Assembly: GCF_026626745.1 (NCBI RefSeq)
Contig: NZ_JAPNJW010000002.1
Coordinates: 1,190,151-1,254,150, forward strand
Reading direction: 5' to 3'
Length of the DNA stretch: 64,000 bases
Source: Nannocystis sp. RBIL2
GTDB lineage: Bacteria; Myxococcota_A; Polyangia; Nannocystales; Nannocystaceae
Made by a program: the position numbers and the translations under genes. Of this stretch, positions 12,717 to 64,000 are shown in pieces. The notes under the pieces are model-generated. The model made no database searches and was not told the origin of the DNA. It saw nothing but the letters and a program-made list of their open reading frames with translations. The number at the start of each line of letters is the position of its first letter. The stretch's first letter is position 1.

Positions 12717-12719
12717 ACG

Positions 12720-13858: not shown

Positions 13859-13859
13859 G

Positions 13860-15702: not shown

Positions 15703-15703
15703 C

Positions 15704-16246: not shown

Positions 16247-17337
16247 CCCGCCTCCCCCGAGAACGCGAACACCGCGATGATCGGCACCCCGCGGTAGGAC
16301 AGCCGCACGAGCCCGGAGCTGACCGAGGAGCGGCAGTACTCGGGCAGATCGACGTCGAGGTCGATCGCCGGGTACGGCACGAAGCCCGACTTCTTCAGCC
16401 GGAGCAGCCACGACTCGAGCGTCTCGTGACGCTCGGTGCGGAAGGCGTCGCTGGTGCCGAGGATGTCGCGGACCTCGCGGCCGAAGAAGCCCTCCTTGAT
16501 GGCGAACTTCTCGTCCGGGGACGCGTCGCTGCGGTCGACCAGATCGAACACCGTCGCGAAGTGCTGCCAACAGTGATGCATGCGCCGGGTCAGGTGCTCG
16601 GTGTCGTGGTCCGAGCTCGGCTCCACCAGCGTGAACACCCGCGGCCTCAGGGCCCGCAGCCGCCGCAGCAGGCGGGTGCGCGCGTCGCTGTCGGGGCCCG
16701 TGGTGTGGTGCAGCGTGTAGGCCGCGTTGATCGACAAGCTCCCCTCGGCGAGCGCCTCGAAGTGCGCGTAGTCGGCATCCTCGCAGACCTCGATCAGCTT
16801 GACCAGCGGATAGATCTCGATGTCGAACGGCAGCTCGGCGCGGACCTCGTCGATCGCGGCCACGCCCTCGTTCAGGGCGGTGCGGTTCGGCTCCAGCGCG
16901 ATCACGCGGAGGCGCTCGATCTTGCCGGGATCGCGCGCGAGCGCCCGCAGCAGCGCGACGATCTGCAGGCCCTTGCCGATCCCGATCTCGAGCAGCGCCG
17001 GCGTGCTCGACTGCCGCATCGCGTGAACGAGGTACTGGTTGGCCAGCGCGTAGCCCTGCGGCACCGCCGGGATCGCCCGCTGCAGCAGCGTGAACAGGTC
17101 GATCTGCGGCCGCTTCTCGGCTTGCAGGTACAAGTTCCGCCCCGACAGCAGGTTGCGGTCGATCCGTCGCAACAGCGACTCGGCGACGATGTGGGACAAC
17201 AGCGCGTCGCTCGGGACATCGACGTCGAGGGCGTCGAGGAGCTGGCTCGCTATCACCGTCTTGGCGACCTGCTCGCGATGCCGGCGAATGTCCTGGCACG
17301 CGGCCAAAATCAGCTTGTAGCGGTCCTCGTAGAGCAT
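16243..17337 (-). CDS. bacterial GRAS-family protein (Rossmann methyltransferase-like fold)
   Basis: ORF 16243..17484 trimmed to ATG MLYEDRYKLIL at 17337; LEIGIGKGLQ nucleotide-binding-like motif; C-terminal RTERHETLESWLLRLKKSGF resembles the GRAS RVER/SAW region. Confidence 0.55.
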   Translation of the reverse strand: MLYEDRYKLILAACQDIRRHREQVAKTVIASQLLDALDVDVPSDALLSHIVAESLLRRIDRNLLSGRNLYLQAEKRPQIDLFTLLQRAIPAVPQGYALANQYLVHAMRQSSTPALLEIGIGKGLQIVALLRALARDPGKIERLRVIALEPNRTALNEGVAAIDEVRAELPFDIEIYPLVKLIEVCEDADYAHFEALAEGSLSINAAYTLHHTTGPDSDARTRLLRRLRALRPRVFTLVEPSSDHDTEHLTRRMHHCWQHFATVFDLVDRSDASPDEKFAIKEGFFGREVRDILGTSDAFRTERHETLESWLLRLKKSGFVPYPAIDLDVDLPEYCRSSVSSGLVRLSYRGVPIIAVFAFSGEAG

Positions 17338-19570: not shown

Positions 19571-20314
19571 GTGAGCGGCCGGCGCTCGGACGGACCTGTC
19601 CCATCGGACACCCTCGCGGCCCTCGACCGCGCCCGCGACCAGGCCGGCCCGCACCTCTGGTTGGTCCCCACTCCGCCCGCCACCGGCGACGCCGACGACG
19701 CCCTGCGCGAGCTCGACGACCTGCTCGCCCGCGGCGAGTTCGACGAGCCCGCCGTCGCCCGCCTGGTGGCCCTGGCGCCGCGCGCCCCGGGCCGCCTGCG
19801 GGCCGTCGTGGCCGCCCTCGCGGCCGCAGGCAGCCCCGCCGCGGTGGCCGGCCTGCTCACCCTGCCGCAGGTCCCCGGCGCGCTCGAGGCGGCCGCCCGG
19901 GCCCTCGCCCGCGGCCTCACCCGCGCCCTGCCCGGCTCCGCCGCGGCGCCGGTGTTCTTCGCCCTCGACTTCCGCGGCTCGCGAGCGCGGCCGTTCCCGG
20001 ACCTGCTGCGGCGCGCCCAGCTGGTCGCCGCCGATCCGAGCGGCGCCCTCCGGCTCGACGTCCTCCGCGTCGACGGCAAGCCCGCCTACCGCCTGTCCTT
20101 TTGGCCAGACACGATCCCGCCGCGCCCGCGCGCCGAGCTCGCCCGCGCCTGCGCCGCCGACCTCGCGCTGCTCCACGGCCGCCTCGCGCGCCTCCGCGGC
20201 GCCCGCCTGTGGCTGAACGGCTTCTGCTTCCCTGACGACGGCCCGGTGTCGGTCGCCGCTCAGGGCCACCTGCTGGTCGCGTGGCTGACATGGTCTGAGG
20301 GACATGCCCCGTGA
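19571..20314 (+). CDS. hypothetical protein
   Basis: GTG start 1 nt after the smpB stop; high GC3; no recognisable motif. Confidence 0.5.
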   Translation: MSGRRSDGPVPSDTLAALDRARDQAGPHLWLVPTPPATGDADDALRELDDLLARGEFDEPAVARLVALAPRAPGRLRAVVAALAAAGSPAAVAGLLTLPQVPGALEAAARALARGLTRALPGSAAAPVFFALDFRGSRARPFPDLLRRAQLVAADPSGALRLDVLRVDGKPAYRLSFWPDTIPPRPRAELARACAADLALLHGRLARLRGARLWLNGFCFPDDGPVSVAAQGHLLVAWLTWSEGHAP

Positions 20315-21807
20315 GACATGACCCGAAAGACACTCCGTTCGCGCGCGCGCGCACCCGCCTGCGCGAGGCGCTGCAGGCCGGCGCCCGCGGCCTCGGCCTG
20401 CGCGCGGTCGACGAGGCGCGGGCGCTGCGGCTGTGCGAGGACACAGGCGAGCGGCTCGACTGGCCCGTCCACACCTGGAGCGCCGCCGGCGGGCGCGACG
20501 GCCTCGGCGCGCCCGAGCCGCTGCTCGACCTCCTGCGCGGCCTCCTGCGCGACCCCGATCCCGGTCTGTGGGTGCTGCTCGATCCGCCCCCGCTCGAGCC
20601 CGTCGCCCTGCGGGCCCTCCGCGAGCTCGCGCAGCGCAGCGTCGGTCCCGCGGTCGTCGTCGTCGGCGACCTCGCGCCTGCGCTCGTCGCCATCCCCGAG
20701 CTCGAGCTGCTGGAGCTCGAGCTGCCCGACACCGACGAGCTCACCGGCCTCGCGGCCGACCTCGTCGACGAGCTGCGGATCGCCGGCCGCCCCGGCCCCG
20801 CCGCCGCGCTCGACCGTCGCGCGCCGCAGCTCGCCCACGCCGCTCTCGGCCTGTCCGAGCACCAGGCCCGTCGACTGCTGCGCCGCGCCGCCCACGTCCC
20901 CGCCGACGACGCCGCGCTCGCCGAGCTGGGCGCCGGCAAGGCCGAGCTGCTGCGCCGCGGCGGCCTGCTCGAGCGCGTCGAACCTGTCTCTTCAGACATG
21001 CTCGGCGGCCTCGCGCAGCTCAAGCAGTGGCTGGCCCGCCGCGCGCTCGCCCTCCGCCCCGAGGCCCGCGCCGCGGCGATCCCCGACCCCCGCGGCGTCC
21101 TGCTCGTCGGCGTGCAGGGCTGCGGCAAGAGCCTGGCCGCCCGCGTCTGCGCCCACGCGCTCGGCCTCGGCCTCCTGCGGCTGGAGCCGGGCCGGCTCTA
21201 CGGCGGCACGCTCGGCGAGAGCGAGGCCAACCTGCGCCGCGTCACCGCGACGGTCGAGCGCATCGCTCCGGTCGCGCTGTGGATCGACGAGCTCGACAAG
21301 GGCCTGGCCGGCAGCGAGGGCCCGGCGAGCGACGGCGGCACCGCGGCGCGAGTGCTGGGCGGGCTGCTGACGTGGCTGCAGGAGCGCCGACGTCCGGTGT
21401 TCGTGGTCGCCACCGCCAATCAGGTCACGCGCCTGCCGCCCGAGCTGACACGTCGGGGCCGTCTCGACGAGATCTTCTTCGTCGACCTGCCCGACGCGGA
21501 CGAACGCGCTGCCATCGCGGAGATCCATCTCGAGCATGCGCCCCGCTCGCACATGGGCGCCGCCCCGGTCCTCGCTGATCCGTTGCCCGACCTCGTCGAC
21601 CTCGTACGCGCGGCCGACGGACTCTCGGGCGCCGAGATCGAGGGCGCGATCGTGGAAGCTCGCCTCGACGCGTTCGCCGAGTCGCGACCGCTCGCGCGCC
21701 GCGACCTCGCTCGCGCGCTCACCGCGACCATCCCGTTGAGTCGCAGTCGTGCCGGCGAAATCACGGCCCTGCGTGCGTGGGCGAGCGCTGCGGCCCGCAG
21801 GGCTTGA
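20311..21807 (+). CDS. classic-clade AAA+ ATPase with N-terminal domain of unknown function
   Basis: GTG start overlaps the upstream stop (GTGA); Walker A GVQGCGKS, Walker B ALWIDELD, second region of homology TRRGRLDEIFFVDLP; no GAFTGA motif, so not a sigma54 activator. Confidence 0.85.
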   Translation: MRHDPKDTPFARARTRLREALQAGARGLGLRAVDEARALRLCEDTGERLDWPVHTWSAAGGRDGLGAPEPLLDLLRGLLRDPDPGLWVLLDPPPLEPVALRALRELAQRSVGPAVVVVGDLAPALVAIPELELLELELPDTDELTGLAADLVDELRIAGRPGPAAALDRRAPQLAHAALGLSEHQARRLLRRAAHVPADDAALAELGAGKAELLRRGGLLERVEPVSSDMLGGLAQLKQWLARRALALRPEARAAAIPDPRGVLLVGVQGCGKSLAARVCAHALGLGLLRLEPGRLYGGTLGESEANLRRVTATVERIAPVALWIDELDKGLAGSEGPASDGGTAARVLGGLLTWLQERRRPVFVVATANQVTRLPPELTRRGRLDEIFFVDLPDADERAAIAEIHLEHAPRSHMGAAPVLADPLPDLVDLVRAADGLSGAEIEGAIVEARLDAFAESRPLARRDLARALTATIPLSRSRAGEITALRAWASAAARRA

Positions 21808-24265: not shown

Positions 24266-24839
24266 GCCCGAGCGCCGGCGCCCGGTCCGCTGGCGGCCCT
24301 GGCTGCGCGCCCTCCACCGCGACATAGGCTACGTCGCCGTCGGCCTCACCTTCGTCTACGCGCTGTCGGGCCTCGCGGTCAATCACATCGCCGACTGGGA
24401 CCCGAACTTCGACAACTACGAGGCGCGCCACCAGGTCGCCGTGCCGCTGCCCGAGGACGACCGCGCCGCCGCCGACAAGGTCCTCGCCGAGCTCTCCATC
24501 CAAGACCCGCCGACCGAGGTCTACCGCAGCGACGCGCGCGAGCTGTCGATCCTCCTCGACGGCAGCACCCTCCACGTCGACCTCGACAGCGGCGTCGTCC
24601 TCGAGGACGGCCAGCGCCCGCGCCTCTTGCTGCGCGTCGCCAACTGGCTGCACCTGAACCGCGGCAAGAAGGCCTGGACCTACATCGCCGACGGCTACGC
24701 CGTGTTCCTGCTGTTCCTCGCCGCCTCGGGCCTGTTCATGTTGCCCGGCCGCAAGGGCCTGGTCGGCCGCGGCGGCGTGCTCGTGCTGCTCGGGATCGCC
24801 GTCCCCGTGCTGTACGTGACCCTGTCCGGCGGGCCATGA
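24258..24839 (+). CDS. PepSY-associated TM-helix membrane protein (partner of the MsrP-like gene)
   Basis: ATG overlaps the upstream stop; WLRALHRDIGYVAVGLTFVYALSGL is a typical PepSY_TM helix; second TM near the C-terminus. Confidence 0.65.
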   Translation: MPEPERRRPVRWRPWLRALHRDIGYVAVGLTFVYALSGLAVNHIADWDPNFDNYEARHQVAVPLPEDDRAAADKVLAELSIQDPPTEVYRSDARELSILLDGSTLHVDLDSGVVLEDGQRPRLLLRVANWLHLNRGKKAWTYIADGYAVFLLFLAASGLFMLPGRKGLVGRGGVLVLLGIAVPVLYVTLSGGP

Positions 24840-24845
24840 CCCCAA

Positions 24846-24898
24846 GGACATGCCCCTTCGGGCATGTTCAAGAGGGCATGCCCTTACGGACATGCCCT
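24846..24898. repeat. cluster of four GGACATGCCC / GGGCATG half-sites
   Basis: AAGGACATGCCCcttcGGGCATGTTCaAGAGGGCATGCCCttacGGACATGCCCTCT. Confidence 0.75.
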
Positions 24899-24920
24899 CT
24901 TGTTCATTCCCCTCCGCGGT

Positions 24921-41103: not shown

Positions 41104-41150
41104 AGGACATGTCGCGGTGGACATGTCGTGACAGACATGTCCCTCAGGAC
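41104..41150. repeat. cluster of GGACATGTC elements
   Basis: AGGACATGTCgcggtGGACATGTCgtgacAGACATGTCCCTCAGGAC. Confidence 0.75.
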
Positions 41151-42813: not shown

Positions 42814-43695
42814 GTGCCCAGCGGCGCGTCTCCCCTCGCTCGCCCGGTCGCCGTCGTCGGCGCCGGCTTCCTCGGCGCCCCCGTCGCTGCCGCGCTCGCG
42901 GCGACCGGGGGCGCTGGCGATCCGCCTGTCCTTGCGACCACGCGCTCCGGGACATGGCCCAACGGACATGTCCCGGAGGGCATCGAGCTCCGCCCGCTCG
43001 ACGTCGCCGCGCTCACCCCTGCCGACATCGCCGCGGTCCTCGCCGACGCGCGTGCGCTGGTCGTCTGCTACGCCCCCGGCCAGCAGCAGGACCGCCGCGA
43101 GCTCTACGTCGAGGGCACCCGTCGGCTGCTCGCGGCCGCAGTCACCCTCCCGCTCACCCGCCTCGTCTACGTCTCATCCACCTCGGCCCTGCCCGACCGC
43201 GATGGCTGGCTCGACGACGACTGCCTCGAGTGGCCCGAAGAGCCGCGGGGCCGCGTGCAGCGCGAGGCCGAGGAGCTGGTGCGCGACACCTGCACGCGCC
43301 ATGCGGTGCCGTGGACGATCCTCCGTCTCGGCGGCCTCTACGGTCCGGGTCGCGAGCTGTTCCGCCTCTACCGCGGCGCCGGCGACGACGCAGTCCTGGC
43401 GGGCGACGGCATGCAGCCGACCAACCTCATCCACTGCGAGGACGCAGTGCAGGCCGTCCTCGCCGCCTTGACCCTCGCGCCGGACGAGCGCGGCGTCATC
43501 AACGTCGTCGACGACGACCACACCCCGCGGCGTGAGATCTTCGCTCGCCTCGCCGCCCTCGCCGGACGGCCGCCCCCCCGATGGGAGCGGCCCGCGGGTC
43601 CGGCCGCGATCGGCAAGCGGGTCGGCAACGCGCGCCTGAAGACGCTGCTGCGCGTGGCCCTCCGGCATCCCTCTCACACCCCGGCGAGCCCCTGA
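42814..43695 (+). CDS. NAD(P)-binding Rossmann-fold protein (SDR/epimerase-like)
   Basis: GTG start at 42814 in the frame of ORF 42250..43695; VAVVGAGFLG motif; carries an in-frame hairpin element at 42947-42976. Confidence 0.6.
   Translation: MPSGASPLARPVAVVGAGFLGAPVAAALAATGGAGDPPVLATTRSGTWPNGHVPEGIELRPLDVAALTPADIAAVLADARALVVCYAPGQQQDRRELYVEGTRRLLAAAVTLPLTRLVYVSSTSALPDRDGWLDDDCLEWPEEPRGRVQREAEELVRDTCTRHAVPWTILRLGGLYGPGRELFRLYRGAGDDAVLAGDGMQPTNLIHCEDAVQAVLAALTLAPDERGVINVVDDDHTPRREIFARLAALAGRPPPRWERPAGPAAIGKRVGNARLKTLLRVALRHPSHTPASP
42947..42976. repeat. perfect 10-bp stem hairpin CCGGGACATG-N10-CATGTCCCGG inside a CDS (in-frame)
   Basis: Encodes SGTWPNGHVPEG within the NAD(P)-binding protein. 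Confidence 0.75.
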
Positions 43696-47008: not shown

Positions 47009-48274
47009 TCAGGCTCGCTCGAACGCGCGCACCTTGTCCCAGGACTCGCGGCGTTCGGCCTCCGGGTCGGAGTCGATCACGATCCCCCCGCCACTCTGCA
47101 GCCACAGCCCGGCCGCGTCCGCCACCCCGGTGCGGATCGGGATGCTGCAGCGCAGACCGTCGGGCAGCAGCGCCACGATCGCCCCGCAGTAGATCCCGCG
47201 AGCGCGCTGCTCGAGCCGCTCGATGTGCTCGGCCGTGCGCCGCTTGGGGGCTCCTGTCACGCTGCCGCCGGGGAACACCGCCGCCATCACCTCCGCCAGC
47301 GTCCATCCCTGGCGCAGCGTGCAGCGGACCTCCGACACCAGGTGATGCACCGTCGGCAGCGTCACCAGCTCGGGCCGGGCCGGCGCGCGGACCGAACCCG
47401 GACGCGCGAGCCGGCCGAGATCGTTGCGCACAAGATCAACGATCATCACGTGTTCAGCGAGATCTTTGATGCTCTGCTGCAACTCTTCTTGGGCCGCCCG
47501 ATCGCCCTCCGGATCGGCCCCTCGCGGGCGCGTCCCCTTGATCGGCCACGAGCGCGCCAGGTCGCCCCCGTCCTCTCCTGCCCCCAGCTCGATCGCCAGC
47601 AGCGTCTCCGGCGAATTGGAGATCGCCCAGCGTCCGCACGGCCGGCCGGGCTCGATCGCCAGCAGGCCTCCCATGCTCGCCGGCGTCGCCGCCTGCACCG
47701 CGGCATACACGGCCGCCGCCCTGGCCGCCACCGGCCGACTCGCCCATTCCGGCAGCCACCGCGCCACGAACGGCTGCGTCAGGTTGATCTGGTACGTCTC
47801 CCCGGCCGCGATGAATTCCTGCGCCCGGCGCACGCGCGCCCGGTAGTCCTCGGCAGCGACCAGCGCCTCGACCGGACCCAGCGGCCAGTCCTGTCCCCAG
47901 AGCCAGGTGGCGGTCGCCAGCCGCGCCAGCAGTTCCGCCCCGGCGCGAGCGTCCCCATGGATCTGCTCGCGCGCCCCGAGCTCGAGCGCCGCCCGGTAAC
48001 GGCGGAGCACCAGCCCCGGCAAACTCGCCGCCGTCCGCGGGCGGCCGAGCAGCGCCGCAGTGCCCACCTCGTACGTCAGCCAGCCGAACCACGGCAGCCT
48101 CGGCTCCGCCCGCCAGAGCGCCTCGATCGTCGGCAACGCCGTCAGATCGTCGGCCACCACCTCGAGGTCGGGCTCGAGCGCCACGAACCCGCGGCCCGCT
48201 CCGCCGTCGAGCCACGCCAACGCGCCGCCCGGCTCCGACGCGGCCAGCGCCGCGATCTGGCGCGCCCGGCTCAC
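47009..48274 (-). CDS. pabB: aminodeoxychorismate/anthranilate synthase component I family (chorismate-binding enzyme)
   Basis: GTG start overlaps the pgsA stop; C-terminal chorismate-binding signature PGGSVTGAPKRRTAEHIERLE...GIYCGAIV. Confidence 0.8.
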   Translation of the reverse strand: MSRARQIAALAASEPGGALAWLDGGAGRGFVALEPDLEVVADDLTALPTIEALWRAEPRLPWFGWLTYEVGTAALLGRPRTAASLPGLVLRRYRAALELGAREQIHGDARAGAELLARLATATWLWGQDWPLGPVEALVAAEDYRARVRRAQEFIAAGETYQINLTQPFVARWLPEWASRPVAARAAAVYAAVQAATPASMGGLLAIEPGRPCGRWAISNSPETLLAIELGAGEDGGDLARSWPIKGTRPRGADPEGDRAAQEELQQSIKDLAEHVMIVDLVRNDLGRLARPGSVRAPARPELVTLPTVHHLVSEVRCTLRQGWTLAEVMAAVFPGGSVTGAPKRRTAEHIERLEQRARGIYCGAIVALLPDGLRCSIPIRTGVADAAGLWLQSGGGIVIDSDPEAERRESWDKVRAFERA

Positions 48275-48822
48275 TCGGCGTTCTTCTGCGCCAGCGCCTC
48301 GCGGAAGCCGAACGTGTAGTCGACCGCGCTCTTGATCGACACGAACACCGACAGCCCGAGCAGCACCAGGCCGACTCGATGGAAGTCGAGCGCCTCCTCG
48401 ATGCCCGGCAGGCGGTAGCGGTAGTGCATCAGCAGGAACGAGATGCCCGTCAGCTGGAACGCCGTCTTCGCCTTACCGCCGGCGCTGGCGGCGATGATGA
48501 TGTTCTCCGAGCTGGCGAGCGAGCGCAGGCCGTTGATGTAGAACTCGCGGGTCAACAACAGCACCACCAGCCAGGCGGGCGCGCGGTCGTCCATCACCAA
48601 GTAGATGAGCACCGCCGACACCATGATCTTGTCGGCGAGCGGGTCGACGAACTTGCCGAACACCGTCACCAGGCCGGAGCGGCGGGCCAGCCAGCCGTCG
48701 ATCAGGTCGAGCAGCGACGCGACCGTGAACAGCAGCGACGCGAGCACGCAGCGCCACGGATCGGTCTTGTCGATCAGCATGAGCACCGGCGGGATGAGGA
48801 ACACCCGGCCGATGGTGATCAT
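48271..48822 (-). CDS. pgsA: CDP-diacylglycerol--glycerol-3-phosphate 3-phosphatidyltransferase
   Basis: ORF 48271..48918, ATG MITIGRVFLIPP at 48822 (start uncertain); CDP-alcohol phosphatidyltransferase motif DLIDGWLARR...GKFVDPLADK. Confidence 0.8.
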   Translation of the reverse strand: MITIGRVFLIPPVLMLIDKTDPWRCVLASLLFTVASLLDLIDGWLARRSGLVTVFGKFVDPLADKIMVSAVLIYLVMDDRAPAWLVVLLLTREFYINGLRSLASSENIIIAASAGGKAKTAFQLTGISFLLMHYRYRLPGIEEALDFHRVGLVLLGLSVFVSIKSAVDYTFGFREALAQKNAE

Positions 48823-48948
48823 GTTGGGGAGATTCAGGATCTCCCGGCGGAAGCCTTCGTACCTCTTCACAGAAAGCCGCGGGAGCCTACCGCGAAGCCA
48901 GGGCCACGTCCAAGACAAGACGCGAGGCCCTGCGAGATCGGCGTCGGC

Positions 48949-53604: not shown

Positions 53605-53952
53605 ATGAGCCCCCTGCTCGACTACCTGCCTCTCGTCGCAGCCGTCGGGCTCATCGGGGTCCTCGCCGGCCTGGTCCGCGCGCGTGCGAGGCAGCAGGCC
53701 GCGCCCGACGCCGGCGAGAGCCTGGTTCAGCTGCGCCCGCGTCAGCCCGTCGACACCGGCGGCCTCCTCGCGCTGGCCGGCCTCGGCTTCGCGCTCGCGC
53801 TGGCCCTGGTCCTGTTCGCGCCGACCGCCGCGGTCTGCCTGTCCAGCACGACATGTCCGGAAGGACCTGCCCTTTGGGTCAGCGCCGCCGGCCTGGGTCT
53901 GCTGGGTCTGGCGACCGCGATCGCGTGGCCCTCGCTGACCCGCGCGCCATGA
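53605..53952 (+). CDS. small membrane protein
   Basis: ATG directly after the macro-gene stop; three hydrophobic segments; contains an in-frame GGACATGTCC-type element (STTCPEGPALW). Confidence 0.45.
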   Translation: MSPLLDYLPLVAAVGLIGVLAGLVRARARQQAAPDAGESLVQLRPRQPVDTGGLLALAGLGFALALALVLFAPTAAVCLSSTTCPEGPALWVSAAGLGLLGLATAIAWPSLTRAP

Positions 53953-56105
53953 TCCGCCCGCGCGCCGCCGCCTCGCCTGCGCCCGCGTCGGCGAGCGGCG
54001 TCGTCGCGCTGGGTGTCTCGGCGAGTAACCTGGCCCAAAGCGCCTGCGACGGCCCGGCGCTGGACGTCGTGTCGCGCGAGCTGGCGTCGCCGCTTCGCGG
54101 CTTCAGGGTCCGTGCGAGCTCCTCGCTCGAGCTCGCGGGGCAGGACTTCCCGCTGCACCCGCCCGCTTCGGCCATGCCAGGCGTCGACGAGATGTCTGCG
54201 AGCTCCTCGCTCGCGGTCGTCTCGCCGCCTCTACTTCTTCGCGGCTTCGAAGCAAGCACTTGCACTGGGCTTGAGGTCGCGTCGCTGCGCTCGTCCGCTT
54301 CGGTCGACGAGACGCCGACGAGTTCGCCGCGCGAGGCCGCGTCGCCGCTTCCACTTCTCTGCCGCTTCGAAGCAAGCGCGAGCACTCGGCTCGAGGTCGC
54401 GTCGCTGCGGTCGACCGCCTCGGTCATGCAAGTTGTCGGCGAGACGCTGGCGAGCTCCTCGCGCGAGGCCGCGTCACCGCTTCCACTTCCTCGCGACTTC
54501 GAGGCAAGCGCGAGCACCCGGCCCGAGGTCGCGTCGCCGCTTCCGCCCGCTTCGGTCATGCGTGGTGTCGACGAGACGCTGGCGAGCTCCTCGCCCGAGG
54601 CCGCGTCACCGCTTCCACTTCCTCGCGACTTCGAGGCAAGCGCGAGCACCCGGCCCGAGGTCGCGTCGCCGCTTCCGCCCGCTTCGGTCATGCGTGGTGT
54701 CGACGAGACGCCGGTGAGCTCCGCGCCCGAGATCGCATCGCCGCTTCTTCGCAATTTCGACGCGAGCGCGAGCTCCTCGCCCGAGTCCCTGTCGCAGGAC
54801 GTCGCCCTGCGGCTGTCCACTTCGGTCGTCTCGCCGCTCCCACTCGCCCGCGTCGCGCACGCGAGCTCGCCGCTCCCTCGTCGCAACTTCCTCCGCGCCG
54901 CGCTCTCGCCCGCAGCGCCTTGCGTCCTCTTCTTCGCGCTCGGGCTCGGCTGCGGGGCCCCTCCGACGGGAGTGCGCGCCGAACCGGGGACGCTGGTGTT
55001 CACGCCGGCGGCGCAGCGTCTCGAGCTGCGACTCGTGAATCACGGCGCGGCGCCCGTCCCGTTGACGCGGATCCGCTTCGACACCCGCACCCCCGACTGG
55101 GGCGCCTTCTCGATCGAGAACCGCGAGTACCCGCGGGAGATCGCTGCTGGCGGAGCCGTGAGCCTGCGCCTCCGCGTCGACCGCGACCACTTCGATCGCA
55201 CCGGCGCCTCCGGCTCCGGCAGCGCGCGCCTCCTCTTCGCGGCGGGAGAGGCGCCCCAGATCGTCGAGCTCCGCTGGGAGCCACCCGATCTCGCGAGCGA
55301 TCTGCGGCGCACGGCGATCCGCACCGCCCTGGCGCTCGCGCTCGTCGCGCTGGCGTGGATCTCGACGCGCCGCACCCGGCTGAACTGGACCGCCTGGCTG
55401 CCGGTGGTGGCCGTCCTGGCGCTGTTCCCGTTCGGTCCGGGCCTGTGCTTCGACGGCCTCGGCAGCAGCCTTTCCGCCGCGGACGTCGAGCAGTGCGCCG
55501 CGGGACGGGGAGGTGCTTCGCTGTCGCTGATCGCCGTCGGCGAAGGCTGGCTCGTCTATCTCGTCGCCCTCGTGCTCGCCGGTCTCGGTCGCCTCGTCGA
55601 CCGGGCTGCGCTGGCCCGCCGCCTGGCGTCGCGCGACCTCGCCCTCGCCGCCGCATTCGCCGGCCCTTTGCTGGCCTTTGGCACCCTCGATCCACGGCAG
55701 CTCGTGGGGGAGCAAGCAGCGGGGCTCGTCGGCGGTGCTGCGATCCCCCCCGCCTGGGGAATCTTCGTGCAACCGATCGCCGCTGCCGTCGCCCTCGCGG
55801 TCGCGGCCGCGCCGCCGGCAGGACGGCTCGAGCGGCTCGTCTTCGCGGCGGCGTTCGTCGCCTGTTTCCTCGGCGGTGGTGTGCCCGCGACGGTACTCGC
55901 CGGCAGCGGCCACGGCCTCGTGCTGTTCATCGGCGCAGTCGTGGCGGCGGCGAAGATCGCTGCGGTCGTGTGGTTCGTGCAGCGGCTGCACGCGTCGGCC
56001 ACCGGCTCGCGTGCGCGCGCCGCTCTCTTCTTTCTCGAGCGGGCCGCGATGCCCCTGGCGATCGCCAATCTGCTGGCGACGTCGGTCTACGCCCTGCTGT
56101 GGTGA
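53949..56105 (+). CDS. repeat-containing protein with Tat/lipobox-like internal signal and a multi-TM C-terminal domain (start uncertain)
   Basis: ATGA overlap with the upstream gene; frame open through the 120-bp repeat array; PRRNFLRAALSPAAPCVLFFALGLGC looks like a twin-arginine lipoprotein signal; C-terminal 300 aa has at least 6 hydrophobic helices; the true start may lie downstream of the repeats. Confidence 0.45.
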   Translation: MIRPRAAASPAPASASGVVALGVSASNLAQSACDGPALDVVSRELASPLRGFRVRASSSLELAGQDFPLHPPASAMPGVDEMSASSSLAVVSPPLLLRGFEASTCTGLEVASLRSSASVDETPTSSPREAASPLPLLCRFEASASTRLEVASLRSTASVMQVVGETLASSSREAASPLPLPRDFEASASTRPEVASPLPPASVMRGVDETLASSSPEAASPLPLPRDFEASASTRPEVASPLPPASVMRGVDETPVSSAPEIASPLLRNFDASASSSPESLSQDVALRLSTSVVSPLPLARVAHASSPLPRRNFLRAALSPAAPCVLFFALGLGCGAPPTGVRAEPGTLVFTPAAQRLELRLVNHGAAPVPLTRIRFDTRTPDWGAFSIENREYPREIAAGGAVSLRLRVDRDHFDRTGASGSGSARLLFAAGEAPQIVELRWEPPDLASDLRRTAIRTALALALVALAWISTRRTRLNWTAWLPVVAVLALFPFGPGLCFDGLGSSLSAADVEQCAAGRGGASLSLIAVGEGWLVYLVALVLAGLGRLVDRAALARRLASRDLALAAAFAGPLLAFGTLDPRQLVGEQAAGLVGGAAIPPAWGIFVQPIAAAVALAVAAAPPAGRLERLVFAAAFVACFLGGGVPATVLAGSGHGLVLFIGAVVAAAKIAAVVWFVQRLHASATGSRARAALFFLERAAMPLAIANLLATSVYALLW
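54060..54900. repeat. tandem array of about 7 units of about 120 nt (two adjacent near-identical copies at about 54453-54572 and 54573-54692)
   Basis: Unit GAGACGCTGGCGAGCTCCTCGCNCGAGGCCGCGTCACCGCTTCCACTTCCTCGCGACTTCGAGGCAAGCGCGAGCACCCGGCCCGAGGTCGCGTCGCCGCTTCCGCCCGCTTCGGTCATGCGTGGTGTCGAC; all six frames stay open across it. Confidence 0.85.
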
Positions 56106-57426: not shown

Positions 57427-57465
57427 TGTCCTGAGGGACATGTCCTCACGGGCATGTCCCTCGGC
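57427..57465. repeat. GGACATGYCC-family element
   Basis: CTGTCCtgaGGGACATGTCCtcacGGGCATGTCCC downstream of the DUF4388 gene. Confidence 0.75.
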
Positions 57466-58408: not shown

Positions 58409-59212
58409 ATGGCCGACGACGATCCGATCACCGAGGGAACTCTCGATCGCCACCTCCATCGGCCGCTCGCAGCGTGGGTCCTCGAGCGGGTGCGACCGGC
58501 GCCGAGCGTCGAGCTGCTCACCCTCGCCGGACTGGTGGTCGGCCTCACCGGCGCCGTCGCCGTGCTGCTGGCCGCGCCGAGCGGCGTCGACTGGATCTTC
58601 CCCGCCTGGCTGTTGTTCGCGTTCACCGTCGCCAGCCGTTGTCGCCGCCTCGTCGCCGGCGCCGCGGAGGCCGAGGCCGGCACGCTCGAGTTTGCGATCG
58701 GCGCCGCCTTCTGGGTCGCGCTGACGCTGCGAGCCGCGCCCGCCAACCCGTGGGCCTGCACCCTCGCGTCGGTGGCGCTCGTCAGCGCGCTGATCCACGT
58801 CGGGCTCCACGCCGAGCTGCGTCGCCGGTTCCGCGACCTGACCGGCGGTGGCAGCGACGCAGCGCCGCCCTCGCCGCGGCCCTCGGTGACCGCGCTGTCC
58901 CGCGGGCTCGGCCCCGCTGTGTTCCACGACATCGCCGCCGCGCTGCTCGGACCGGAGCACACCGGCCCCCGTCCCACCCCCGGCGCTGCCCGCTCCCTGC
59001 TGGCCCCGCCCCTGCGCATGGCCGCACCGCTGAGCCACGACACTCACCTCGCGCTGCTCTACGTCGCCACCGCCGCCGCGGCGGTCCGGCTCGACCTGTC
59101 CTTCTGGACAGCCGCACTCGCGGTCGCGCTCGGGCTCAACGTGTGGGCGCTCCTGGTCGTGTCGGCCTGGCGCCGCGCCGAGGCGTTGGTCTGCCGACTT
59201 CCGCCCGCCTGA
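58409..59212 (+). CDS. hypothetical integral membrane protein
   Basis: Several hydrophobic helices (LLTLAGLVVGLTGAVAVLLAA, WLLFAFTVA, LALLYVATAAAAV). Confidence 0.5.
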   Translation: MADDDPITEGTLDRHLHRPLAAWVLERVRPAPSVELLTLAGLVVGLTGAVAVLLAAPSGVDWIFPAWLLFAFTVASRCRRLVAGAAEAEAGTLEFAIGAAFWVALTLRAAPANPWACTLASVALVSALIHVGLHAELRRRFRDLTGGGSDAAPPSPRPSVTALSRGLGPAVFHDIAAALLGPEHTGPRPTPGAARSLLAPPLRMAAPLSHDTHLALLYVATAAAAVRLDLSFWTAALAVALGLNVWALLVVSAWRRAEALVCRLPPA

Positions 59213-59581
59213 GCTGCAAGCGTGGTGTGACTGGGTGCCGACGCGCGGGCTCAACCGAGCCGCGTACCTGGCCCAAAGGTCAGACGCATCCTCGCCGCAG
59301 CGCTGGCCCGCCCGAAGTCCGCACCTGCCCCTCGGGCAAAGTGTGACCGCGCGTTTTCCGCCCGAAGTCCGCACCTGCCCCGAAGGCCAGGCGCGTCACG
59401 TGGCTCGCCCAGCTACCAGCGCCGCGCACGACTCCGCTCGAGCCACGCGGCTGAACGACGCGCGAGGTCCAGGTACGACGAGCGCGCCCGGGCTGCGGCG
59501 AGCGCAGCGCGGGCGCGAATGTGTCTGGCCGATCGCGCATGTCCCCGGGACCCTGTCCGCGGGGACACACGCCGACGGCGC

Positions 59582-59848
59582 TCAGGACGCGGCGGCCTGC
59601 TTCTCTTGCACCGTCTTGTGCAGCAGGTCGACGAGCTCGTCGATGTTCGTCAACTTGTTGAGCTCGGCGCGGGGGACCTTCACCTTGAGCTCGCGCATGC
59701 TGCAGGAGACGACCTCGACGATGTCGAGGCTGTTGGCGCCGAGGTCCTTCATCGACTTGGCGGGGTCGACCTGGGCCGCATCGATCCCTTCGACGGTGTC
59801 CACGAGGTGGCGCTTGACGACGGCCAAGACATCATCGCGGGTGCTCAT
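59582..59848 (-). CDS. acyl carrier protein
   Basis: AAGGAG RBS 7 nt upstream; phosphopantetheine site DLGANSLDIVEVV; 88 aa. Confidence 0.85.
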   Translation of the reverse strand: MSTRDDVLAVVKRHLVDTVEGIDAAQVDPAKSMKDLGANSLDIVEVVSCSMRELKVKVPRAELNKLTNIDELVDLLHKTVQEKQAAAS

Positions 59849-59911
59849 TCTCGGTTCTCCTTGGTGGGCGCGGTGCAGGTTGCCCGCAGCGAATCTCGCA
59901 GGAAGCGAAGG

Positions 59912-60727
59912 TCAAAAACTCAGCCCGTGACGCTCGCGCGCCGAAAACAGGCGAACGACGTTGTCGGCGAAACCGAGGCCCCTGTCCAGTAGCAGAATCT
60001 GCCCCTTGACGCCGTCCATGAGGCCGCTGCAGAGGGCCAGCGCCGCGGCCGCGACCTCGTCGGGGTCGATGAACCAGCCTTCCGAGTAGTACTTCTTGCA
60101 GAACGGCACGAAGTCGGGCCCGAAGGTGGCCTCCAGCGATGCAGTCTCGACCGGGTTCGCGCGCAGGATGTTGATGCGAACATCCTCACTGAGCAGATCT
60201 GCCGTGAGGTAGCGACAGAAGGTCTCCATCACGGTCTTGCTCGCGGCCACGAAGTCGTAGCCCGGGAGGAAGTACTCGGGCCCGCGCGACGACATTCCCA
60301 CCGCGTAGCGCGGCCAGCGACCGAAGGTCTCGCGGATGGCCTGCAGGTAGCCGACGAACGGCCACGCGCTGTAGCCGAGGCTGCGCAGGAAGCTCTTCTT
60401 GTCGAGGTCCTCGTGCGACTTGCTGACGTGGGCGAACGACACGTTGCTGATCAGCGCGAACACGGCGTCGTGGTCGCGCTTGACCGCCTCCATCAGCGCC
60501 TCGGTGTCCTCGTCCTGCGACGCGTCGGCCTCGACGATCGTCGGCGCCGGCGCGCCCGCGGCTTCGAAGCGAGCCCGCAGCTCGTCCTCGTCGGCCGAGC
60601 CCCAGCGGTGCGTCAGGTACACGTGTGCGCCGTACTTGCCGAACAACAGGCCGGTCGCCAGGCCGATGCCCGCCGTCCCGCCGGTGACGATGACGGCCTT
60701 GCCCTTGAGGTCGTTGCGGAGGATCAC
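59912..60727 (-). CDS. SDR-family enoyl reductase-like protein (FabL-type TGxxxGxG with Y-x6-K)
   Basis: GTG start (VILRNDLKGKAVIVTGGTAGIG) preceded by GGAAGGAG and overlapping the upstream stop (GTGA); YDFVAASK active-site spacing as in FabI/FabL; paralogue of the upstream gene. Confidence 0.75.
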   Translation of the reverse strand: MILRNDLKGKAVIVTGGTAGIGLATGLLFGKYGAHVYLTHRWGSADEDELRARFEAAGAPAPTIVEADASQDEDTEALMEAVKRDHDAVFALISNVSFAHVSKSHEDLDKKSFLRSLGYSAWPFVGYLQAIRETFGRWPRYAVGMSSRGPEYFLPGYDFVAASKTVMETFCRYLTADLLSEDVRINILRANPVETASLEATFGPDFVPFCKKYYSEGWFIDPDEVAAAALALCSGLMDGVKGQILLLDRGLGFADNVVRLFSARERHGLSF

Positions 60728-61539
60728 GCCGGAGCTCCTTCCTTGTCGCTGCCGCCGACGAGCCGCGGCCCGAGCGTGGCGACGTTGTCGACGAACGCCG
60801 CGCCGCGGTCGAGCGTCAGCACCTGCCCGCCCATCGCGTCGAACAGCCCGCTGCACAGCGCGAGGGTCGTGTCGGCGACCTCGTCGACGGTGCACGCGAA
60901 CTCGGGGAACTTGCCCGCCAGCTCGCGCTGCTGGGCGGCGAACATCTGCTCGTAGCTCTCGGTCATCACCTGGCGGGTGCGCAGGGCGTTGACGATGCAG
61001 CCGTGCTCGTACAGGTGCGTGCTCATGTAGCGCACGAACGTCTCCAGCACCGCCTTGGCCACCGCCACGTAGTCGTAGCCGGGGTAGTGCGTGTCGGGCC
61101 CGTCGGACGACATCGCCAGCGCGTAGCGGGGGTAGCGGCCGAACGCGGCGTGCAGCGCCTGCAGGTAGCCGACGAACGGCCAGCTCGAGTACTCGAGGCT
61201 CTTGTACAGCGCGCGCCGGGTGTGCTTCTCCGGCCCTTCGCCGCGCTGGACCACGCAGACGTTGCTGATGAACGCCCACACGCCGTCGCACTCCTCCTTG
61301 AGCCGCGCGGTCAGCTTGTCGGTGTCCTCCTCGCGCGACGCGTCGGCCTCGATCACCAGCGGCGCCGGGGCTCCGGCGGCGATGAAGCGGGCCTTGAGCT
61401 CGTCCTCGTCGGCCGAGCCCCAGCGGTGCGTCAGCACCGTGCGCGCACCCTGGCGCCCGAACGCGAGCGCGCACGCGAGGCCGATGCCGCGCGTCCCGCC
61501 CGTGATCAAGACGACCCTGTCCTTGAAGTCATTGAGCAA
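60724..61539 (-). CDS. SDR-family enoyl reductase-like protein (paralogue)
   Basis: TTG start after GGGAGG RBS; VVLITGGTRGIG; YDYVAVAK (Y-x6-K). Confidence 0.75.
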   Translation of the reverse strand: MLNDFKDRVVLITGGTRGIGLACALAFGRQGARTVLTHRWGSADEDELKARFIAAGAPAPLVIEADASREEDTDKLTARLKEECDGVWAFISNVCVVQRGEGPEKHTRRALYKSLEYSSWPFVGYLQALHAAFGRYPRYALAMSSDGPDTHYPGYDYVAVAKAVLETFVRYMSTHLYEHGCIVNALRTRQVMTESYEQMFAAQQRELAGKFPEFACTVDEVADTTLALCSGLFDAMGGQVLTLDRGAAFVDNVATLGPRLVGGSDKEGAPA

Positions 61540-61542
61540 GCG

Positions 61543-62319
61543 TCATCCTCCCTGGCCTGGCCCGTAGTTCGTGCGGATCCGCGCCACCGTCTCCGGGTCG
61601 GCGAAGCATACCTCGTGCATCATCGACTCGACCGTGCGCGCCTCCTCGAAGGCCCGTCGGCGCGGCAACGCCAGCGCACGTTTGAGCAACAGCAGCGCAG
61701 CCCGCGGCTTGTCGGCGATCCGCGCCGCCATGTCGAGGGCCCGCGGCAGCACCTCGACGCGCGGCACGACCGCGTTGACCTGGCCGCGCCCCGCCAGCTG
61801 CTCGCCGCGGAAGTACTGCGAGCCGTACAGCATCTCGGCCCCGACGTACTCGCCGAACGCGAACTGCACGAGGCGCGTCGCGCCCATCCCCGGCGTGAAG
61901 CCGAGGTCCATGAAGTTGGCGCCGTAGCGGCTCTCGCGGGCCATCACGACCATGTCGCAGGCGAGGCCGAACACCAGGCCGCCGCCGACCGCGGGCCCCG
62001 CCATCGCGGCGATCGTCGGCACCGGCACCTCGAGCAGCGCCCGCGTCAGCAGCAGGTCGTACGGGGCGATCGTGCCGTCGGCGAGGCCGAGCAGGACGTC
62101 GCGGTCGCCGCCGGCGGAGAACGCCTCGGGCAAGCCAGCGACCACGCACACGCGCACGTCGGCGCGCCGGCCGAGGTCCTCGAGCGCGCGCGTCAACGCG
62201 GCCGCGAACGCCCGGCTGAACGCGTTCTTACCGGCCGCGTCGCGCATGGTCAGCACTGCCACGCCGTCGCGCTCGAGCGTCACCTCGACGAGGCTGTCTG
62301 TTGGGACATGCGCGTTCAT
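61543..62319 (-). CDS. enoyl-CoA hydratase/isomerase family protein (ECH2-like position in a beta-branching cassette)
   Basis: ORF 61543..62730 trimmed to Met MNAHVPTDSLVEVTLERDGVAVLTM at 62319; crotonase fold; ATGA overlap with the upstream ECH. Confidence 0.75.
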   Translation of the reverse strand: MNAHVPTDSLVEVTLERDGVAVLTMRDAAGKNAFSRAFAAALTRALEDLGRRADVRVCVVAGLPEAFSAGGDRDVLLGLADGTIAPYDLLLTRALLEVPVPTIAAMAGPAVGGGLVFGLACDMVVMARESRYGANFMDLGFTPGMGATRLVQFAFGEYVGAEMLYGSQYFRGEQLAGRGQVNAVVPRVEVLPRALDMAARIADKPRAALLLLKRALALPRRRAFEEARTVESMMHEVCFADPETVARIRTNYGPGQGG

Positions 62320-63071
62320 TCCTGTCCTTTCAGCCTGGCGAACCACGGCGGCGCCTGCCCCTCGGCCAGCAGGGCCGCCAGCGCCGCCCGCAGCTCGGGG
62401 TCTTCGAGGTCGGCCGCGGTCTGGGCCACCCCGCCCTGCCCCGCCGGCCCGGTGATCCGCTTGAGCGTCGCTACCGCCTGCGGCCGCGCGCGCAGCAACG
62501 AGCGCAAGAGGCCGCGCAGCGCCTTGTCCGGGTCGTCCGCGACCACGTCCACGAGACCCCACGGCTCGGCCTGGGCGGCAGTCACCAGCTCGCCGGTCAG
62601 CGCCAGCCGCCGGGTCCGCCGCGCGCCGATCCGGGCCTCGAGCGCCGGGAAGATCACCGCCGGCACCAGCCCGTAGCGCAGCTCCGGCAGCGCGAACGTG
62701 GCGGTCGGCGCCGCCACCACCAGGTCGCACGCGGCCGCCAGGCCGACCCCGCCGCCGCTGGCCGCGCCGGTGACCACCGCGAGGGTCGCCAGCTTCGCGC
62801 TCGCCAGCAGCTCGAGGCAGCCGGCGAAGCGCTGCATCGCCTCGCGCATCTGCGCCGACGGGGTCCGCAGCGCCGCCGCCAGGTCCATGCCGGCGCAGAA
62901 CTCGGGGCCCTCGCTGGCGATCACCAGCGCGCGCGCCGGGCCGGCGACCGCCTGCTCGACCGCGTCGGCCAGCGCGGCGATCCCGTCGGTGTCCAATGCG
63001 ACATGTCCTCCGGGACCTGCCCCGAGGAACAGCCGATGGATCAGCTCGCCCTCTTCGCAGCGGACGCGCAC
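62316..63071 (-). CDS. enoyl-CoA hydratase/isomerase family protein (ECH1-like position)
   Basis: GTG start; crotonase-fold pattern ...ALVIASEGPEFCAGMDL...; directly follows the HMGS homologue. Confidence 0.75.
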   Translation of the reverse strand: MRVRCEEGELIHRLFLGAGPGGHVALDTDGIAALADAVEQAVAGPARALVIASEGPEFCAGMDLAAALRTPSAQMREAMQRFAGCLELLASAKLATLAVVTGAASGGGVGLAAACDLVVAAPTATFALPELRYGLVPAVIFPALEARIGARRTRRLALTGELVTAAQAEPWGLVDVVADDPDKALRGLLRSLLRARPQAVATLKRITGPAGQGGVAQTAADLEDPELRAALAALLAEGQAPPWFARLKGQE

Positions 63072-63179
63072 GCGATCACCTCCGAAGTGCAGAAACGAGG
63101 GGACGAGCGGCCGGGCCGCACGACGCCGAGAGGCGGCGCGGCCGGCGTGGCGAGGGACATGCGCGGCATGGTCGGAGCC

Positions 63180-64000
63180 TCAGGACAGGCGGTACTCCCG
63201 CTGGAAGCCGCGCACCGCGTCGAGCACGAGGCGGCCCTTGCCGGCGTAGGCGCGCTCGTAGAGCCCGCGCAGGCCCGACTGGTCGACCTCGTAGTCGCTC
63301 TGGTCGATGAAGGCGGCGCGCTGGCGCTCGAGCGCCTCGTACTCCTCGATGGTCAGCGGCATGCGGCGATCGAGGCCGGCGCCGACGCGCTGGCTCGCGA
63401 CCTGCTCGCGCGCGCGCTCGCCGACGGTCGCGCGGTAGAACTCGGCGCAGGAGCCCGAGCCGTAGGAGAAGATCGAGACCTTGTCGCCCGCGCGCAGCTC
63501 GGGGTCGGCGTCGATGAGGCCGAGCATGGCGATGAAGGTCGCCGAGGTATAGGTGCCGCCGAAGCGCGAGTTGTAGCGCAGCGCCTGCTTCGACTTGCGC
63601 TCGAAGTGCGCCTTGGCCTCGCGCAGCGACATCTCGTGCGGACCGCGGCGCAGCAGCGCCCGGTGGGCCCTGAAGGTCATGCCGCCGAACGGCACGTGGT
63701 AGATGTGGCGCGCGAACTCGGCGTCGTAGTCGACCATGCCCGAGCGGGCGACGAAGTGGTCGTAGGCGCCCTCGAGCGCGTCGAGGTAGCCGTACAGGCT
63801 GGTGTCGGCGTGGCCGACCTCCTTCGTCGAGGTCGGGCGGTAGGTGTCGAAGATCTCCTGCGTCCAGTAGCCGCAGGTGTCGAGGTCGAGCTCGAGCACG
63901 TCGGGCTGGGCGCTGACCAGCATCGCAGTGGCCGCCGCGCCGAGCACGTACTCCCACGGCTGGCCGAGGTGCACGCGGCTCTGATCGGTGCAGACCACCA
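63180..64000 (-). CDS. HMG-CoA synthase family protein (polyketide beta-branching HCS-type), C-terminal part; continues beyond window
   Basis: FSYGSGSCAEFY signature and the overall HMGS C-terminal pattern; the N-terminus lies past 64000. Confidence 0.85.
   Translation of the reverse strand, partial: VVCTDQSRVHLGQPWEYVLGAAATAMLVSAQPDVLELDLDTCGYWTQEIFDTYRPTSTKEVGHADTSLYGYLDALEGAYDHFVARSGMVDYDAEFARHIYHVPFGGMTFRAHRALLRRGPHEMSLREAKAHFERKSKQALRYNSRFGGTYTSATFIAMLGLIDADPELRAGDKVSIFSYGSGSCAEFYRATVGERAREQVASQRVGAGLDRRMPLTIEEYEALERQRAAFIDQSDYEVDQSGLRGLYERAYAGKGRLVLDAVRGFQREYRLS

Follow-up and report, generated by a model that had tools for sequence, protein, structure and literature searches.

A beta-branching cassette within a free-standing, fatty-acid-synthase-like operon of Nannocystis, with a candidate role in branched aminolipid synthesis

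Beta-branching cassettes are accessories of giant modular polyketide synthases (PKSs). A 64,000-nucleotide stretch of DNA from Nannocystis sp. RBIL2 (contig NZ_JAPNJW010000002.1), here called the window, ends within genes for such a cassette: a homolog of 3-hydroxy-3-methylglutaryl (HMG) synthase (HMGS) and two proteins of the enoyl-CoA hydratase superfamily (ECH1 and ECH2). These are followed by genes for two short-chain dehydrogenases/reductases (SDR-A and SDR-B) and a free-standing acyl carrier protein (ACP). What do these enzymes build? A first reading made from the letters of the window alone (the sequence-only reading) proposed either a route to isovaleryl-ACP or the trans-acting end of a larger PKS cluster beyond the window. 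The six co-directional minus-strand genes on which it was based are all present (Table 1).

The six form the 3' half of a conserved operon with 11 genes in all. Where the operon is covered by the window, DNA identity is 97% to N. pusilla Na p29 and 92-95% to N. exedens, N. punicea, N. bainbridge, and N. radixulma, and the genes stand in the same order. In all five of these Nannocystis genomes, HMGS is preceded by five genes encoding a ketoreductase (KR), a ketosynthase (KS), a dehydratase (DH), an acyltransferase (AT), and an alpha-oxoamine synthase (AOS), and these five genes are intact in four of the genomes. The order of the complete operon is AOS-AT-DH-KS-KR-HMGS-ECH1-ECH2-SDR-A-SDR-B-ACP. 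A tblastn search of all 64 kb of the window with the KS of a relative gave no match at E <= 1e-3, in agreement with the earlier statement that the window holds no KS. The relative's AT, DH, KR, and AOS have no match elsewhere in the window at the same threshold.

A scan of one genome per species, with genes called by a GC3-based procedure and tblastn, produced 46 loci. The set [AOS]-AT-DH-KS-KR-HMGS-ECH1-ECH2-SDR-SDR-ACP recurs in ~45 species-level genomes, which is far beyond chance; in one branch of loci, the ACP gene lies between the two SDR genes. Carriers are mostly Myxococcota (Nannocystaceae, Polyangiaceae, and others), together with single metagenome-assembled genomes (MAGs) labeled Armatimonadota, Nitrospinae, Vicinamibacteria, Gemmatimonadota, Alphaproteobacteria, and Gammaproteobacteria. 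Discrete AT, KS, KR, DH, enoyl reductase (ER), and ACP components are recognizable by homology in the four intact Nannocystis operons and in ~40 others.

We are modestly inclined to read the operon as a self-contained type II fatty acid synthase (FAS)-like line with a built-in beta-branching cassette, ending in the AOS, which would release a methyl-branched alpha-aminoketone (a sphingoid-like base). The observations that underlie this proposal are gene identities, catalytic residues, operon conservation, translational coupling, gene linkage, and SDR fusion.

The sequence-only reading regarded HMGS, ECH1, and ECH2 as a genuine ACP-type beta-branching cassette, and the profile and structure-database matches agree: ECH2 passes a PksI-type model, HMGS has its highest scores with CurD and PksG, and the ACP is nearest AcpK. 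ECH2 scores 269 bits on the PksI-type NCBIfam model NF005496 (cutoff 215), and its top matches in the PDB are PksI (154 bits) and the ECH2 of CurF (138 bits), with the next at 84 bits. The histidine that aligns with PksI His230, the sole essential residue of that enzyme (PMC7501309), is invariant in 41 of 41 orthologs. By these criteria, ECH2 is clearly a predicted decarboxylase of the PksI/CurF type.

The portion of HMGS within the window contains IFSYGSGSCAEFY and matches Pfam HMG_CoA_synt_C (E 2e-18). It shows only the histidine of the catalytic triad (YHVPFGG) and the SYGSGS motif; full-length proteins of relatives have ~413 amino acids, and the Glu/Cys/His triad is invariant in 45 orthologs. 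The full-length N. punicea ortholog scores 271 bits with CurD, 236 with PksG, 227 with Myxococcus xanthus MvaS, and 225 with VirC, a small lead over MvaS in a PDB ranking that separates HMG-ACP synthases from MvaS weakly. The same protein reaches 256 bits on the MvaS equivalog model TIGR01835, which is below the cutoff of 360. Together, the HMGS and ECH2 scores run counter to an assignment of these genes to a primary-metabolism MvaS and beta-oxidation enzymes.

ECH1 is more divergent. It matches Pfam ECH_1 (E 9e-31), and its best NCBIfam match is the PksH-type model NF005498 at 120 bits, under the cutoff of 250. Generic crotonases are its top PDB matches, with PksH at mid-rank (66 bits). The glutamate of an LPE motif is invariant in 35 of 35 orthologs and the aspartate of a GMD motif is present in 31 of the 35; equated by motif position, they would correspond to Glu137 and Asp68 of PksH (described in PMC7501309). 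The ACP, which is the operon's only one, has the AcpK-type model NF005502 as its best NCBIfam match (59.6 bits, under the cutoff of 79).

Discrete ERs of the FabI/FabL type directly after ECH2 are atypical for beta-branching cassettes, as the sequence-only reading pointed out. The two proteins are paralogous, with 51% identity to each other. Both have the Tyr-x6-Lys spacing of FabI and FabL rather than YxxxK, and in both the position of the classical SDR tyrosine is a valine. They match Pfam adh_short_C2, an enoyl-ACP reductase family, with E 5e-26 for SDR-A and E 5.5e-32 for SDR-B. Aquifex FabI is the best PDB sequence match of SDR-A; the Tyr-x6-Lys motifs of the two are aligned, and Val158 lies opposite the classical tyrosine. 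TGGxxGIG, Tyr155, and Lys162 of SDR-A are invariant in all 71 aligned SDR copies and in 43 orthologs, so both paralogs look catalytically competent. We propose that the SDR pair is the operon's putative ER, because it has the Tyr-x6-Lys motif, a separate FabG-type KR with YxxxK is encoded, and the operon offers no other ER candidate.

Nearly all loci carry two SDR genes (84 copies in 44 loci), and in a simple neighbor-joining tree SDR-A and SDR-B belong to old, separately conserved paralog clades. SDR-A and SDR-B are fused in frame in two or more independent relatives known from metagenomes (P0032 and P0035; locus L056, 9734-11251). The linkers in P0032 and P0035 differ and are ~35-40 residues long; P0085 is fusion-like by length alone. 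Because the P0032 and P0035 fusions place both proteins in one chain, they suggest that SDR-A and SDR-B work together physically as a complex. In three loci (L035, L040, and L041), the SDR genes sit with the FAS-type genes and not behind ECH2.

Everything that follows on chemistry, chain length, amino-acid partner, and product is a prediction from these gene contents. The FabD-like AT would load malonyl onto the single ACP. The KS, which is of PksF lineage and has a full Cys-His-His triad, would convert malonyl-ACP to acetyl-ACP for use by HMGS and would also perform the condensation that yields beta-ketoacyl-ACP. HMGS would then add acetate to the beta-keto group, and dehydration by ECH1 followed by decarboxylation by ECH2 would give 3-methyl-enoyl-ACP. 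SDR-A and SDR-B, probably as one hetero-oligomer, would reduce this product as well as the ordinary enoyl-ACPs that arise from elongation rounds involving KR and DH. If branching takes place at the C4 stage, isovaleryl-ACP would be an intermediate and the final chain would be iso-branched. The AOS would catalyze decarboxylative condensation of the saturated acyl chain with an amino acid to give the methyl-branched alpha-aminoketone.

Genes linked to the operon could carry the product further. An extended SDR (HpnA/OleD-like), found by flanking-gene clustering near 16 loci and directly beside the AOS gene in two of them (L041 and L051), might reduce the ketone. A tandem-GNAT N-acyltransferase gene recurs beside at least 10 loci, and genes for a fatty acyl-AMP ligase (FAAL) and a second ACP lie beside four. 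The GNAT protein, fed by the FAAL and the second ACP, might acylate the amine to form a ceramide-like aminolipid. In four MAGs (L016, L019, L022, and L025), this GNAT-ACP-FAAL trio directly continues the operon at its 3' end; in N. punicea (L057, CP114040.1, 12.19-12.21 Mb), it stands by itself, at a distance of 7.3 Mb. The attached and distant arrangements represent a pathway that is merged or split. Phosphopantetheinyl transferase genes are present in several loci.

A broader proposal, which we put forward tentatively and regard as possible rather than probable, is that the operon makes methyl-branched long-chain bases by a polyketide-style route independent of branched-chain amino acids, and that Myxococcota, with a scattering of other phyla, thereby produce sphingolipid-like aminolipids of a new class. 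The branch would come from acetate by way of HMGS, not from leucine or S-adenosylmethionine (SAM). In the boldest version, rounds of reduction would alternate with rounds of branching and the ER pair would serve both, giving an isoprenoid-like chain with multiple methyl groups.

Several observations count against the AOS-terminated line. The genes past position 64,000 are inferred from close relatives and lie outside the window. Canonical beta-branching cassettes include a condensation-incompetent KS, termed KS0 (PMC11522927). The operon has one KS only, and unlike a KS0 it retains the catalytic cysteine: its Cys-His-His residues align with the FabF triad and are invariant in 41 of 41 orthologs. 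The dual role in malonyl-ACP decarboxylation and condensation is therefore an assumption. Likewise, the single ACP would need to act as both donor and acceptor. We noticed in it no tryptophan of the kind that we take to flag the acceptor ACPs of beta-branching systems.

The two reductases also score far below established families: on the FabL model NF005975, SDR-A has 71 bits and SDR-B 74 (cutoff 328), and FabI models give the pair 48-63 bits, below cutoffs of 299-477. An AF2 model of SDR-A (pLDDT 88) is matched by Foldseek first to generic SDRs, including an aminoacetone reductase, in a fold search that does not separate enoyl from keto reductases. The AOS passes none of the NCBIfam equivalog models (BioF, Kbl, Spt, ALAS, and CqsA), with 329 bits on BioF (cutoff 426), 304 on Kbl (460), and 200 on the CqsA-type model (428). 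On three Spt models it has 298, 288, and 232 bits (cutoffs 640, 500, and 670), and its BioF and Kbl scores equal or exceed these. Because it falls under all of these cutoffs, the substrate of the AOS is not readable from homology. Finally, the AOS gene adjoins the gene set in ~2/3 of loci and is non-adjacent in ~1/3, and the GNAT and FAAL genes are adjacent in a minority of loci only.

The operon could instead supply an ACP-bound isovaleryl or other iso-acyl unit to membrane fatty acids or ether lipids, with the amine step incidental or part of another pathway. This explanation accords with the closeness of HMGS to CurD, which acts on acetoacetyl-ACP, and with a full set of AT, KS, KR, DH, ER, and ACP that could extend an isovaleryl primer. 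It would also account for the loci with no adjacent AOS gene and for one neighboring protein of ether-lipid type. That protein (1608 amino acids; L039, 15187-20013, minus strand, in a Polyangiaceae MAG) has fatty-acyl reductase, AMP-ligase, ACP, and PlsC-acyltransferase domains, a domain set like that of ElbD, the ether-lipid enzyme of myxobacteria. However, it occurs in this locus only, and the core of the operon has no thioesterase or acyltransferase for hand-over to lipid synthesis. Moreover, the AOS gene comes first in all Nannocystis operons and is often coupled to the AT gene by a small gap or overlap. We consider this explanation unlikely. The isovaleryl-ACP proposed by the sequence-only reading is plausible as a first stage of the AOS-terminated line. 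It is not the whole pathway, because the operon also carries a condensing KS, a KR, a DH, and the chain-releasing AOS.

A second alternative, which we judge improbable to a similar degree, is that the product is small and diffusible instead of a membrane lipid: a short branched alpha-aminoketone that serves as, or is turned into, a signal of the CAI-1/LAI-1 alpha-hydroxyketone type, or that dimerizes to alkylpyrazines. Alpha-aminoketones dimerize readily, and myxobacteria emit alkylpyrazines. The operon is small, self-contained, and free of membrane enzymes, and the AOS matches the model for CqsA/LqsA-type autoinducer synthases. However, that score is lower than those on the BioF, Kbl, and Spt models; KR, DH, and ER imply several complete rounds of elongation; and the linked FAAL, ACP, tandem-GNAT, and keto-reductase-like SDR indicate a lipid with two chains. 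Beside the operon, we noticed no CqsS/LqsS-type sensor kinase.

Less probable still is that SDR-A and SDR-B are keto- or aminoketone reductases that act on the AOS product, with enoyl reduction borrowed from a housekeeping FabI. The top Foldseek matches of the SDR-A model are the aminoacetone/aminopropanol dehydrogenase 6CI9 (E 5e-20) and generic SDRs, and the sequence scores of SDR-A are nearly equal for FabI (62 bits) and generic SDRs (61 bits). However, the classical tyrosine position is an invariant valine, and the conserved tyrosine stands seven residues before the lysine, as in FabI and FabL. A FabG-type KR and, in 16 loci, the extended SDR are already available for ketones, and without SDR-A and SDR-B the operon has every FAS function except an ER.

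Accessory use of HMGS cassettes by modular PKSs is common (PMC11522927), and one MAG has a type I PKS gene a few kilobases from the operon, but it is very improbable that the six genes serve in trans as the tailoring end of a large modular PKS or nonribosomal peptide synthetase cluster beyond 64 kb, as the sequence-only reading had offered as its second option: the near-identical Nannocystis genomes hold five small discrete genes past that point, with KS and AT among them and no modular PKS; the 10 kb upstream of the shared genes in the five genomes comprise KR, KS, DH, AT, and AOS and then divergent sugar and SDR genes; the genes downstream in the window are housekeeping genes; and none of the 41 loci scored for KS has a modular PKS within 10 kb except L037. 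The L037 gene (17790-20735, minus strand; Deltaproteobacteria MAG) is a type I PKS fragment with ACP, KS, and KS-AT linker regions. It lies on the opposite strand, ~3 kb past the downstream end of the operon, and is the sole modular PKS neighbor seen among the loci.

Two other functions were considered and dropped. Biotin (pimeloyl/KAPA) synthesis uses linear chains, and the cassette yields branched ones. The other is N-acylation of an amino sugar in a polysaccharide: sugar and glycosyltransferase genes occur in the flanks of some Nannocystaceae MAGs only, and the downstream genes of the window are housekeeping.

Table 1. Genes of the operon and adjacent features, with window positions (upstream: past 64,000, from relatives)
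Feature	Position	Strand	Remarks
AOS	upstream		PLP-dependent alpha-oxoamine synthase, BioF/Kbl/Spt family, 288-329 bits; PLP (pyridoxal phosphate) lysine invariant
AT	upstream		FabD-like
DH	upstream		FabZ/ApeI-like
KS	upstream		PksF-type NF005490 best, 359 bits, under cutoff 445; FabF 327
KR	upstream		FabG type with YxxxK
HMGS (HMG-ACP synthase/HCS)	63180-64000	-	C-terminal 272 codons; window end cuts gene
ECH1	62316-63071	-	Crotonase-fold putative HMG-ACP dehydratase, divergent; GTG start
ECH2	61543-62319	-	Predicted PksI/CurF-type decarboxylase
SDR-A	60724-61539	-	FabI/FabL-like putative enoyl-ACP reductase, paralog 1; TTG start
SDR-B	59912-60727	-	FabI/FabL-like putative enoyl-ACP reductase, paralog 2; GTG start
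ACP	59582-59848	-	Free-standing, 88 aa; Pfam PP-binding, E 8e-9
GC-rich hairpin	59540-59567	-	8-bp stem, 12-nt loop; read from sequence
Convergent membrane protein	58409-59212	+	267 aa; Nannocystis-only conserved neighbor

Within the window, the junctions fit translational coupling at two points. The ECH1 and ECH2 genes overlap by ATGA (62316-62319), and the SDR-A and SDR-B genes overlap by GTGA (60724-60727), as the sequence-only reading had described. Its description of all six genes as tightly coupled holds for these overlaps and fails for the HMGS-ECH1 junction, which has a 108-nt spacer. It also assigned a strong ribosome-binding site (RBS) to each SDR gene, and purine-rich, RBS-like stretches indeed precede both, that of SDR-B being AAGGAAGGAG. 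Similar stretches lie 5' of the ECH2 and ACP genes, the latter with AAGGAGA followed by the ATG start, and the GTG start of ECH1 is accompanied by the RBS-like stretch GGAGGTGA.

The hairpin beyond the ACP gene starts 15 nt past its stop codon, is not followed by a T-tract, and may mark the end of the operon. A consensus scan of positions 59200-64000 found neither an intrinsic terminator nor a sigma-70 promoter. The hairpin belongs to an intergenic palindromic motif with many copies in the window. Its unit is near GGGACATGTCCC (RRRCATGYYY-like) and occurs singly or as two to four units at 14-bp spacing, nearly always at gene boundaries. Sites are at 4036-4100, 12120-12734, 20299-20324, 24831-24900, 32202, 41104-41145, 42949-42974, 57435-57460, 59536, 63000, and 63155, and within the operon copies are found just past the ACP stop codon, in the HMGS-ECH1 spacer, and at the 5' end of ECH1. 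With at most two mismatches, the window has 23 matches (2.9 expected). Of 44 loose matches, 35 are outside deep coding sequence, which makes up 77% of the window. The unit could be a REP-like element or a binding site for a regulator.

The membrane-protein gene at 58409-59212 adjoins the ACP gene in all five Nannocystis genomes. Its product has no direct match in Pfam or NCBIfam. It is 33% identical (E 7e-34) to a Pfam CDP-OH_P_transf protein encoded in a related MAG (L004), and in it the D-G-x2-A-R...D-x3-D motif has other residues in place of its aspartates. Judged by these substitutions, it is probably a degenerate, inactive relative of the CDP-alcohol phosphatidyltransferase family, and its membership in the system is uncertain. 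An ordinary PgsA-like CDP-alcohol phosphatidyltransferase is encoded at 48271-48870. Among the housekeeping genes of the window downstream of the operon are those for a cobalamin adenosyltransferase, proteins with DUF4388 and macro domains, CarD, and NadB.

At the other end, beyond the AOS gene of Nannocystis, divergently transcribed genes encode an extended SDR (HpnA/OleD-like) and a UDPGP-family nucleotidyltransferase. In two Nannocystaceae MAGs (L001 and L004), the operon lies amid genes for sugar-nucleotide enzymes, glycosyltransferases, and a Wzx-like flippase, and the flanks also include NTP-transferase/HAD and CDP-alcohol phosphatidyltransferase genes. Such surroundings, which the window lacks, hint that the product is glycosylated or has a phospho-head group. 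The locus of N. pusilla Na p29 (L007) has frameshifts in KS, ECH2, SDR-B, and ACP (7530-14400), which are probably long-read assembly errors, and ~1.9 kb of additional DNA between the ACP and membrane-protein genes (14632-16546) that the window does not have. Farther from the operon, a 132-bp tandem repeat (3.4 copies, 89% matches; 54303-54747) lies in or upstream of an open reading frame at 53853-56105, whose translation has repeated PEAASPLPLPRDFEASAS segments before a membrane domain. The repeat region has a strong AT skew of -0.29.

In this operon, beta-branching chemistry is found inside a small, free-standing FAS-like set that ends in an amine-forming enzyme and is spread through soil and marine Myxococcota and several other phyla. 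A search of the literature on HMGS or beta-branching in connection with oxoamine synthase, BioF, serine palmitoyltransferase, sphingolipids, or Nannocystis found no description of the operon, which is not proof of absence. The placement of a beta-branching cassette in a free-standing line of type II FAS kind, together with a pair of SDR reductases and amine-forming release, is apparently undescribed. If the AOS-terminated line operates as proposed, bacteria would have a new route to branched lipid chains that needs neither branched-chain amino acids nor SAM. Environmental lipidomics could then look for the predicted lipids, an amino- or ceramide-like family so far undescribed. The 11 genes would then provide a compact system for the action of HMGS, ECH, and FabI-like reductases on a simple carrier protein, and cultured hosts include Nannocystis exedens, N. 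pusilla, and N. punicea.

The closest known arrangement is that of pksX (bacillaene) in Bacillus subtilis, in which AcpK, PksC (AT), PksF (KS), PksG (HMGS), PksH (ECH1), and PksI (ECH2) all have counterparts in the operon. The best NCBIfam models of the KS, ECH1, ECH2, and ACP are of the PksF, PksH, PksI, and AcpK types, and the catalytic histidine of ECH2 and glutamate of ECH1 are kept. In contrast to pksX, the operon has no modular PKS bearing acceptor ACPs, and its KS keeps the catalytic cysteine in place of a KS0. Its cassette is embedded in a full discrete FAS-like set with a KR, a DH, and two SDR-type ERs, ending in an AOS. Although it would work in the manner of the pksX or curacin cassettes, the operon is not a standard member of the beta-branching cassettes, because it has neither a KS0 nor a modular PKS on which to act in trans.

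Curacin and jamaicamide biosynthesis (the ACPs of CurA, and CurB to CurF, including an ER domain) offers a second comparison, given that HMGS is most like CurD (271 bits). In both systems, an enoyl-reductase step follows HMGS, ECH1, and ECH2, and curacin branching reportedly occurs on an acetoacetyl-ACP starter. The curacin ER is a megasynthase domain of the medium-chain dehydrogenase/reductase (MDR) type that acts after halogenation and gives a cyclopropane, whereas the operon has two discrete FabI/FabL-type SDRs and neither a halogenase nor a megasynthase. These SDRs share with FabI and FabL the SDR fold, the Gly-rich cofactor motif, the Tyr-x6-Lys spacing, and an operon with KS, KR, DH, and ACP genes. 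They differ in being very divergent and in forming a conserved pair of paralogs that is sometimes one fused polypeptide.

The alternative isovaleryl-CoA pathway (MvaS, LiuC, AibA/AibB, and AibC) passes from acetoacetyl through HMG, 3-methylglutaconyl, and 3-methylcrotonyl to isovaleryl, and it shares with the operon a setting in Myxococcota. The analogy drawn by the sequence-only reading thus holds for the chemistry; it does not extend to the enzymes, since the operon has none of the AibA/B or AibC type. That pathway is CoA-bound and uses a glutaconate-CoA-transferase-like decarboxylase and an MDR reductase, with no ACP. The operon has no CoA-transferase-like or MDR genes. Instead, its HMGS is under the MvaS cutoff, decarboxylation would be performed by a PksI-type ECH2 and reduction by SDRs, and the carrier is an ACP.

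Bacterial ceramide synthesis resembles the extended form of the system. In Caulobacter it needs five genes, encoding Spt, AcpR, AasR, CerS, and CerR (PMC11324152; PMC11087976). By kind of enzyme, the likeness covers an AOS acting on acyl-ACP, an ACP reserved for the pathway, a loader that makes acyl-ACP by way of adenylation, an N-acyltransferase, and a reductase that depends on NAD(P). The matching kinds are linked to the operon in genomes; the GNAT protein and bCerS, and the extended SDR and CerR, are compared by kind only. The operon's AOS differs from Spt in falling under all three NCBIfam Spt cutoffs. The chain itself would also differ in origin: a branching FAS of its own would synthesize it de novo, and no free fatty acid would be loaded.

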